Assembly: GCA_964016885.1 (NCBI GenBank)
Contig: OZ024744.1
Location: forward strand, 31,682,001-31,746,000
Length of the DNA stretch: 64,000 bases
DNA from: Eledone cirrhosa
Lineage: Eukaryota
Direction: 5' to 3'
The number at the start of each line of letters is the position of its first letter. Position 1 is the first letter of the stretch. Made by a program: the position numbers and the translations under genes. The notes below the pieces were generated by a model. That model worked only from the letters and a program-made list of their open reading frames with translations, was not told the origin of the DNA and did not search any database. Below, one piece after another: positions 10,759 to 11,850 of this stretch.

Positions 10759-11850
10759 TATATGAAAACGGAGAAAGAGACGATTATGAGGAAGAAAAAT
10801 ATATTCTTTTCCTTTTTTTGTCTATCTCTCTCTCTTTTTTCTGGGTTAGAAAATGATTAAAGCGAAATGTTTTACTTTGTGTGAAGTGTTAAGGTATTAG
10901 TTGATTTATTGATTATTTAACAATGGCATTTATTTATCTATTTATATATTTAATTATTGTCTATTACCGGTTTCTGCATTTATATGCATTATCAAATGAT
11001 AGTGAAATGTATTAGTGTGGTGTCGCACATGTTAAACAGAAGGTGAAGAAAGAATAATGTTATATACAAACAAGGTTTAAGAAGTGAAAAGGAAAAAGAA
11101 AAAGAAAAAAATCCATGCATAATGTGGAACGTAAAAATGAATGTGGAAGAAAAGTTAATGTTATTTACAAGCACAGTCATTGAAGTTAAGCAGTTCAAAA
11201 TGTGTTAATATCGCAAGAGTGCTTAGTTGACCCATGGTTCCGTGAAGGAGGCAAATGGTGGACTGTGGTTTGATATGATTTCCCTTTTTAGAGAGTTAAT
11301 ATGCAGGGGGAAGAAATTCTTGCTGGGTGATATTTAATTTATTTAAGAAAAAGGATTAGGTAGGGTGTGAGGGAGGTAACTCTTGTAAATGTTTGATGGT
11401 TTGTTGCAGTTTTAGATTGGTCCGAATTTTAGGGCATTGAGTACTGGTTGAAATTTATTAATGAAATGTGTTTCCTTATTTCTGCGTTGGATGAAAGTAG
11501 CGTTGTCTATGAATTTGTAAATATGGAACATTTTAAAGTTTGGAAGTTGGTTGAGAGCACAATTGGCGATATGTTCACTAAATGCAATCTTTCTGTATTC
11601 CTGTATTTTAATTTGTGATTTATGGACGGTCATACGTTGACGGAGGCTGATTTTTGTCTGTCCTATATAGTGCTCTTGACAACCTGAGCAAGTCAAAACA
11701 TAGATAAGGTTTTCAGATGCACATGTAAAGTAGTGTTTAAAATATTTCGTTTTAATCATTTTCTAACCCAGAAAAAAGAGAGAAACAAAAAAAGGAAAAG
11801 AATATATTTTTCTTCCTCATAATCGTCTCTTTCTCCCTGTTTTCATATAT
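10759..11850 (-). mobile_element. PLE 3' fragment (GIY-YIG) bounded by an inverted pLTR copy
   Basis: ORF 11412-11759 NLIYVLTCSGCQEHYIGQTKISLRQRMTVH; 10759-10868 is the inverse of 11744-11850. Confidence 0.85.
10960..10999 (-). ncRNA. Minimal hammerhead, U3-A8 core variant, in PLE 3' region
   Basis: Minus strand cat TTGATAA tgcat ataa atgca GAAA ccgg TA atag; 5-bp stem II; palindromic stem III; weak stem I. Confidence 0.65.

Follow-up and report, generated by a model that had tools for sequence, protein, structure and literature searches.

The question raised by this locus is whether a hammerhead motif with a variant core (U3-A8 replacing C3-G8) is a genuine ribozyme of a coding Penelope element (PLE), and whether that core arose there independently or is connected with R1, a repeat in the same DNA that carries it as well. 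The DNA analysed is a 64-kb window of contig OZ024744.1 from Eledone cirrhosa. The letters quoted in the preliminary description are present exactly, on the minus strand (which that description left unstated), where an entire minimal type I hammerhead motif occupies 10999-10961 according to the letters, a descriptor scan, and comparison with shuffled sequence. Along that strand, the variant core U3-U4-G5-A6-U7-A8-A9 (10989-10995; letters and descriptor scan) is followed by helix II (10975-10988), in which five Watson-Crick pairs formed by 10988-10984 with 10979-10975 and closed by U10.1-A11.1 enclose a 4-nt loop; at the start of this helix, A9-U-G reads AUG. The GAAA segment (G12-A14 at 10974-10972) leads into helix III (10966-10971), the self-complementary ACCGGU (ACCGGT in DNA), which has no loop and therefore needs two copies to form; the predicted minimum-energy dimer contains both this inter-strand duplex and helix II. 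U16.1 is present, A17 lies at 10965, and the predicted cleavage site falls after A17 in a GUA triplet (10964-10965), the position being taken from the scan and the cleavage from the hammerhead consensus. Helix I, previously described as weak, is so indeed: its 5' strand (10999-10996) and 3' strand (10964-10961) form two contiguous A-U pairs, then a C.A mismatch, and then a U.G pair. The plain register has no extra base between positions 9 and 10.1 and places U10.1-A11.1 where the conserved pair is G10.1-C11.1; an alternative register, in which that U is an extra base, gives a G-C pair plus an extra A before G12. The features expected of minimal type I hammerheads in PLEs (a Watson-Crick 3-8 pair, GAAA, U16.1-H17, a palindromic helix III, and helix II) are all present, and the U3-A8 motif at this site is real. 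A control set of cores with non-pairing positions 3 and 8 gave no matches in the real window. Rfam at the gathering score returned no matches in the whole window, and none of its 72 matches at E up to 10 in 10700-13300 covers the motif, from which we infer that the Rfam models do not cover forms with a loop-less helix III.

The element that carries the motif appears to be a Neptune-like PLE, its clade being read from the nearest proteins rather than from a tree. An open frame on the minus strand (11762-11412), whose first eight codons derive from an inverted terminal arm, contains the 5'-truncated C-terminal GIY-YIG endonuclease (11412-11738; PF01541, alignment, and homologues), of which this copy keeps only ~108 codons. 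The GIY-YIG domain is matched in frame (PF01541, E 5.1e-08) on the same strand as the hammerhead, and in an 18-sequence alignment the endonuclease residues C17, C20, H39, H56, Y24, G26, R35, E89, and N101 are conserved, including the CCHH residues and the YIG motif. The stop codon lies 417 nt upstream of the ribozyme core and the hammerhead ~200 nt before the 3' end of the element, which bears out the earlier placement of the motif downstream of a GIY-YIG frame. A HMMER search with the endonuclease (E up to 0.001) matched 1291 proteins; among the best 150 of these 1291, the closest has 55% identity, an RT motif lies upstream of the C-terminal endonuclease in 20 of the 21 matches of at least 450 aa, and a CX2-5CxxC linker is found in 62 of the 72 matches with enough upstream sequence. 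Among the classic C-terminal clades, this linker has been assigned to Neptune and Nematis (text of PMC8557442). Word-indexed protein searches for longer or near-length proteins gave no match. The copy starts downstream of the linker, and the linker zinc finger, RT, and 5' repeat are all absent; the lineage encoded an endonuclease, as the earlier description of a coding PLE had it, but 'autonomous' is not a term that this copy supports.

Between the endonuclease stop and a TA tract lies the 3' non-coding region, or pseudo-LTR, of the element (10764-11411, minus strand), the latter label following the account in PMC8557442. Self-comparison places the 3' terminal arm at 10764-10874 (minus) and an inverted copy of it, joined to the truncated 5' end, at 11738-11844 (plus); the alignment of the two (115 matches, 4 mismatches, and 8 gap positions) extends into the TA tract. 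Tracts of (TA)n are read from the letters both at the 3' end of the element, where they mark the target site (10746-10763), and at the opposite end (11865-11882), and only at the latter is there a short extra stretch (11853-11864), possibly a tail remnant. Both the inverted copy at the 5' end and the (TA)n target have been reported in PLEs (PMC8557442). The studied copy is a dead insertion in (TA)n, truncated at its 5' end and bearing an inverted arm there, and it has a single ribozyme with no partner in cis. Two other arrangements were rejected. A Naiad-type arrangement (endonuclease upstream of RT, no canonical hammerhead) does not match the observed order, where non-coding DNA and a hammerhead come after the endonuclease stop, and a search with a full-length profile for an RT downstream of the endonuclease gave no match. 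A non-LTR retrozyme (non-coding tandem repeats with a hammerhead each) does not match either, since only one motif is present and it is joined to a coding fragment. No support was found for reading the sequence beyond the ribozyme as the N-terminus of a next frame: this tail had no profile match, and its similarity to PLE N-termini was equalled by 93 of 1000 shuffles.

Further PLE sequences occur in the window. Six coding remnants were located by tblastn and profile search, at 440-1126 (-), 18785-18934 (-), 28840-30285 (+), 32861-36513 (+), 51388-52932 (+), and 62815-63981 (+); that at 32861-36513 runs from RT through endonuclease and is accompanied by a direct repeat of 78 nt (32331-32408 and 36431-36508). 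Sharing a TA tract with the studied element, an inverted repeat (11884-12414) whose two 263-nt halves match perfectly across a 5-nt spacer consists of the terminal repeat of another PLE; both arms contain a canonical hammerhead (12217, plus; 12081, minus), and related copies lie at 32660, 42472, and 54684. This repeat either inserted very recently or reflects a fold-back in the assembly. Canonical-core hammerheads with a long helix II and a (TA)n-like palindromic helix III lie at 14866 (+), 36841 (-), 54272 (+), and 28112 (-), the one at 54272 being 1.3 kb behind the 51388-52932 frame and within a pair of 255-nt inverted arms (51042-51296 / 54122-54376). Well-formed minimal hammerheads lie at 59803-59833 (-), 57191 (-), 38241 (+), and 38465 (+), the last with U3-G8. 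Apart from PLEs, a short interspersed repeat of ~200 nt is present in many copies (4187-4322, 7297-7508, 9147-9904, 10605-10717, 17164-17338, 21622-22411, 23967-24153, 40162-40278, and 42684-42858) and presumably resembles an octopus SINE. An open frame of 1174 codons at 45863-49387 (+), with RVT_1 and zf-RVT and partly repeated at 20195-21163, is probably a near-intact LINE, and a second RT fragment lies at 40619-41662 (+).

The best explanation of the motif, and a likely one, is that it represents the pseudo-LTR hammerhead of a Neptune-like PLE family in which the 3-8 base pair has undergone an inherited compensatory swap, with cleavage after A17 in a dimer. In a tandem transcript, helix III would be completed by pairing of two copies through the ACCGGU palindrome, and helix I would span both copies; cleavage of each strand after A17 would follow, probably at a slow rate and assisted by the protein of the element. 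The lone truncated copy would find no such partner. Minimal hammerheads of PLEs are reported to cleave weakly and only as dimers (PMC4209133), and that of PAc, a Poseidon element of Anolis carolinensis, needs both the 3-8 pair and the PLE protein (PMC11167929). Folding predictions give the active-register dimer of the studied motif an energy of -8.1 kcal/mol, and only one of the 10 window motifs has a weaker one. The minimum-energy fold, in which the 5' strand of helix I pairs with the core, is more stable by 12.4 kcal/mol; this gap ranges from 2.6 to 28.2 across the 10 motifs, and the energies, in which the core is not modelled, do not separate the studied motif from the canonical ones in the window. 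A helix I of two A-U pairs, the U-A pair replacing the conserved G10.1-C11.1, and the predicted competing fold over the core may all count against activity. The minimal hammerhead at 59833 (-), which has the layout of the studied motif though its core is canonical and its helix I has 7 bp, offers a natural control. In PAc, insertion in vitro proceeds without cleavage and no read ends were seen at the cut site in RNA-seq (PMC11167929), which leaves room for doubt about the biological role even of canonical PLE hammerheads.

It is unlikely, if the best placed of the alternatives, that the motif was inherited but no longer works as a ribozyme, and was kept or left over for a start codon (A9-U-G) or a splice acceptor (A11.1-G12). 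Loss of ribozyme function would be consistent with the weak helix I and the competing hairpin over the core, and an AUG at the start of helix II is also present in the anole element PAc; in the window, AUG occurs at A9 in 3 of 15 motifs. The splice-acceptor reading draws on a 246-nt AG-free, pyrimidine-rich tract (10976-11221, minus strand; letters and shuffles), after which the first AG is A11.1-G12 of the ribozyme, and on a branch-point-like heptamer at 11017-11011 with its branch-point A 38 nt before G12. With three ways of shuffling, 5, 12, and 10 of 5000 shuffles produced an AG-free run of this length; this statistic was chosen after the sequence had been seen, and the 3' regions of other PLEs in the window reach 43-188 nt. 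Against these roles, the core is perfect at every position, as are helix II and the palindrome of helix III, the frame begun by the AUG runs for only 11 codons in this copy, no upstream splice donor matching at least 4 of the 6 scored positions was found, and the similarity of the 3' tail to PLE N-termini is not significant (the shuffles given above). A more specific proposal, which must be considered improbable, would make the A11.1-G12 AG the 3' splice site of a leader intron, such that splicing and ribozyme folding would be mutually exclusive, and would count R1 and this motif as two separately derived U3-A8 PLE ribozymes in the genome. If true, the spliced message would lose the 5' half of the core and stay uncut, while intron-retaining RNA would keep a dimer-activated U3-A8 ribozyme. 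In Penelope of D. virilis the intron ends at helix I and merely remodels that helix (PMC4209133), and an acceptor within the catalytic core would be a switch unlike it.

Another possibility, quite improbable, is that a canonical C3-G8 core decayed in this copy through two transitions (C to T and G to A), leaving an accidental U3-A8. Transitions of both kinds are frequent in AT-rich DNA, a single change to U3-G8 is present in the window at 38465, and the mismatch in helix I indicates that the copy may have decayed. The age of the insertion bears directly on this scenario. From the structure of PLEs, the two terminal arms would have been made at insertion, and they differ by 2 substitutions in ~105 sites (about 2%), or by 4 in 119 including the TA edge, plus short gaps, a similarity that gene conversion could have raised. 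The copy therefore looks young, with about 1% change per arm and its 108-codon frame still open, and with so little difference between the arms, the two core bases are unlikely both to have decayed since it inserted. The chance that positions 3 and 8 both changed after insertion was calculated as 9e-5 to 3e-4 and, once the 95% upper bound and a threefold bias are assumed, as 0.010-0.016, for an overall range of 1e-4 to 0.016. In a relaxed scan of the window, the 18 rows comprise 13 C3-G8, 3 U3-A8, 2 U3-G8, and no C3-A8 cores, with none dropped (the rows at 9923 and 14334 look like chance matches, and the row at 2075 is paired with the wrong GAAA); the lack of C3-A8 among them speaks against decay. 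An inherited U3-A8 is favoured over decay. The window self-comparison for a second copy of the element returned only the inverted arms, and in GTDB, which is not a eukaryotic genome collection, an exact pattern scan gave no match and a protein scan gave 37 pattern matches, none confirmed; the family-wide U3-A8 state proposed here is accordingly extrapolated from a single copy.

The preliminary description also proposed the lineage of this element as a possible source or partner of R1, taken here as the repeat at 2020-2225 / 13043-13251 and the only other U3-A8 family found in the window. Window self-comparison gives two copies of R1 with its U3-A8 hammerhead (2020-2290 and 12869-13257), the second of which has its own inverted terminal arm at 12869-12973. 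Helix III of R1 is a 12-nt palindrome whose centre bases differ between the two copies, both being self-complementary, the cleavage triplet is GUC, and helix I has four pairs; in the Rfam search of 10700-13300, R1 matched Hammerhead_HH9 weakly (E 1.1). On local alignment of one R1 copy with the 3' region of the element, the score was reached by 82% of 500 shuffles, and the other copy aligns over the core and helix II only (3.8% of 500 shuffles, as the best of three comparisons). Homology of R1 outside the core was rejected for lack of similarity in these alignments, in agreement with the earlier remark that no other resemblance was visible. No PLE frame adjoins either copy on the strand of R1. 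It is very improbable that the two U3-A8 cores are homologous and that the lineage of the element was the source or mobilising partner of R1. In favour of this, the heptamer core is identical, one R1 copy aligns as just described, and a preprint derives non-autonomous retrozymes from PLE repeats (10.64898/2026.07.22.740005). However, nothing outside the core is similar and the remaining copy is at chance level; helix III (12 nt, with a different centre), helix I, and N17 all differ, and because of the difference in helix III, R1 and the element could not pair through it; and R1 carries its own inverted arm like any truncated PLE. The proposed relationship finds no support here, the simplest view of R1 is as a 5'-truncated end belonging to another PLE family, and an independent origin of the two U3-A8 cores is plausible. 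Finally, a chance match in AT-rich DNA, which the A/T-rich core, the short helix I, and the silence of Rfam might suggest, is extremely improbable given that the relaxed U3-A8 descriptor matched none of 5000 shuffles of the 651-nt 3' region of the element, that it matched 0.005 times per shuffled 64-kb window (200 block-wise dinucleotide shuffles, both strands), and that the motif lies on the expected strand and at the expected place in a PLE.

In the literature covered, outside which most subscription papers fall, no paper on PLE hammerheads in cephalopods was found. Variants of the PLE hammerhead are reportedly treated by Lunse, Weinberg and Breaker (RNA Biol), who may list this U3-A8 variant, and the supplement of PMC8557442 gives motifs per family, which may bear on novelty. 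The main text of a paper on Octopus vulgaris repeats contains neither 'ribozyme' nor 'hammerhead' (PMC13282606). The novelty implied for a U3-A8 core in a coding PLE does not hold against published work: several natural ribozymes show covariation of C3-G8 to U3-A8, and such ribozymes are active in vitro (PMC3088659), while ~1,300 motifs with U3-A8 cores were published in 2014 from the Cercyon PLEs of Schistosoma mansoni (PMC4209133), the Sm4 family lying in both terminal repeats of a full coding Cercyon (PMC4209133, Table S1). In Fig. S3 of the same paper, 2 of 56 rows have U3-A8, one of them also with U10.1-A11.1, and the three mollusc rows have C3-G8. The swap was thus already known from blood-fluke PLEs, and the motif described here is mostly an ordinary further example. 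Its departures from the PLE hammerhead consensus (an extra base between 9 and 10.1, and G10.1-C11.1) have precedents, since Fig. S3 contains exceptions to both, and one row has the AGAAA that the alternative register would require (PMC4209133). Helix I of PLE hammerheads usually has 3-5 bp and in some cases 2 bp, although the published 2-bp cases are G-C (PMC4209133).

Among known systems, the hammerhead of PAc resembles the present one in its pseudo-LTR location, an AUG where helix II begins, and the end of the element shortly past the cut site, but it has C3-G8, belongs to the Poseidon clade, and its AUG opens a real frame, compared with 11 codons here (PMC11167929). The PLE hammerhead of Marsupenaeus japonicus, together with that at 59833 (-) in the window, shares the lack of an inserted base, a 10.1-11.1 pair other than G-C, a 6-nt palindromic helix III, and A17, and differs in its C3-G8 core and a helix I of 5-7 bp (PMC4209133). 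Neptune-clade PLEs share the C-terminal GIY-YIG with CCHH, 5' truncation, the inverted 5' copy, the (TA)n target, and a hammerhead near the 3' end, whereas the truncated copy here has neither linker zinc finger nor RT (PMC8557442). Cercyon Sm3/Sm4 come closest in the core itself, with U3-A8, type I topology, and a dimer-dependent palindromic helix III, and the Sm3 example has helix II closed by U10.1-A11.1 as well (PMC4209133). They differ in their helix III, which measures 4 nt rather than 6, and in a base inserted between 9 and 10.1, which the plain register lacks here (PMC4209133); the motif described here further has A17, and the closest proteins of its element are Neptune-like. If the 3-8 pair has been swapped repeatedly in unrelated PLE families, a point beyond the reach of a single truncated copy, this would argue that selection keeps the ability to cleave, a point still debated. 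The motif combines U3-A8, U10.1-A11.1, and a two-pair helix I in one natural test case, and it extends the U3-A8 core from the schistosome Cercyon to what appears to be a Neptune-like element in Eledone cirrhosa.
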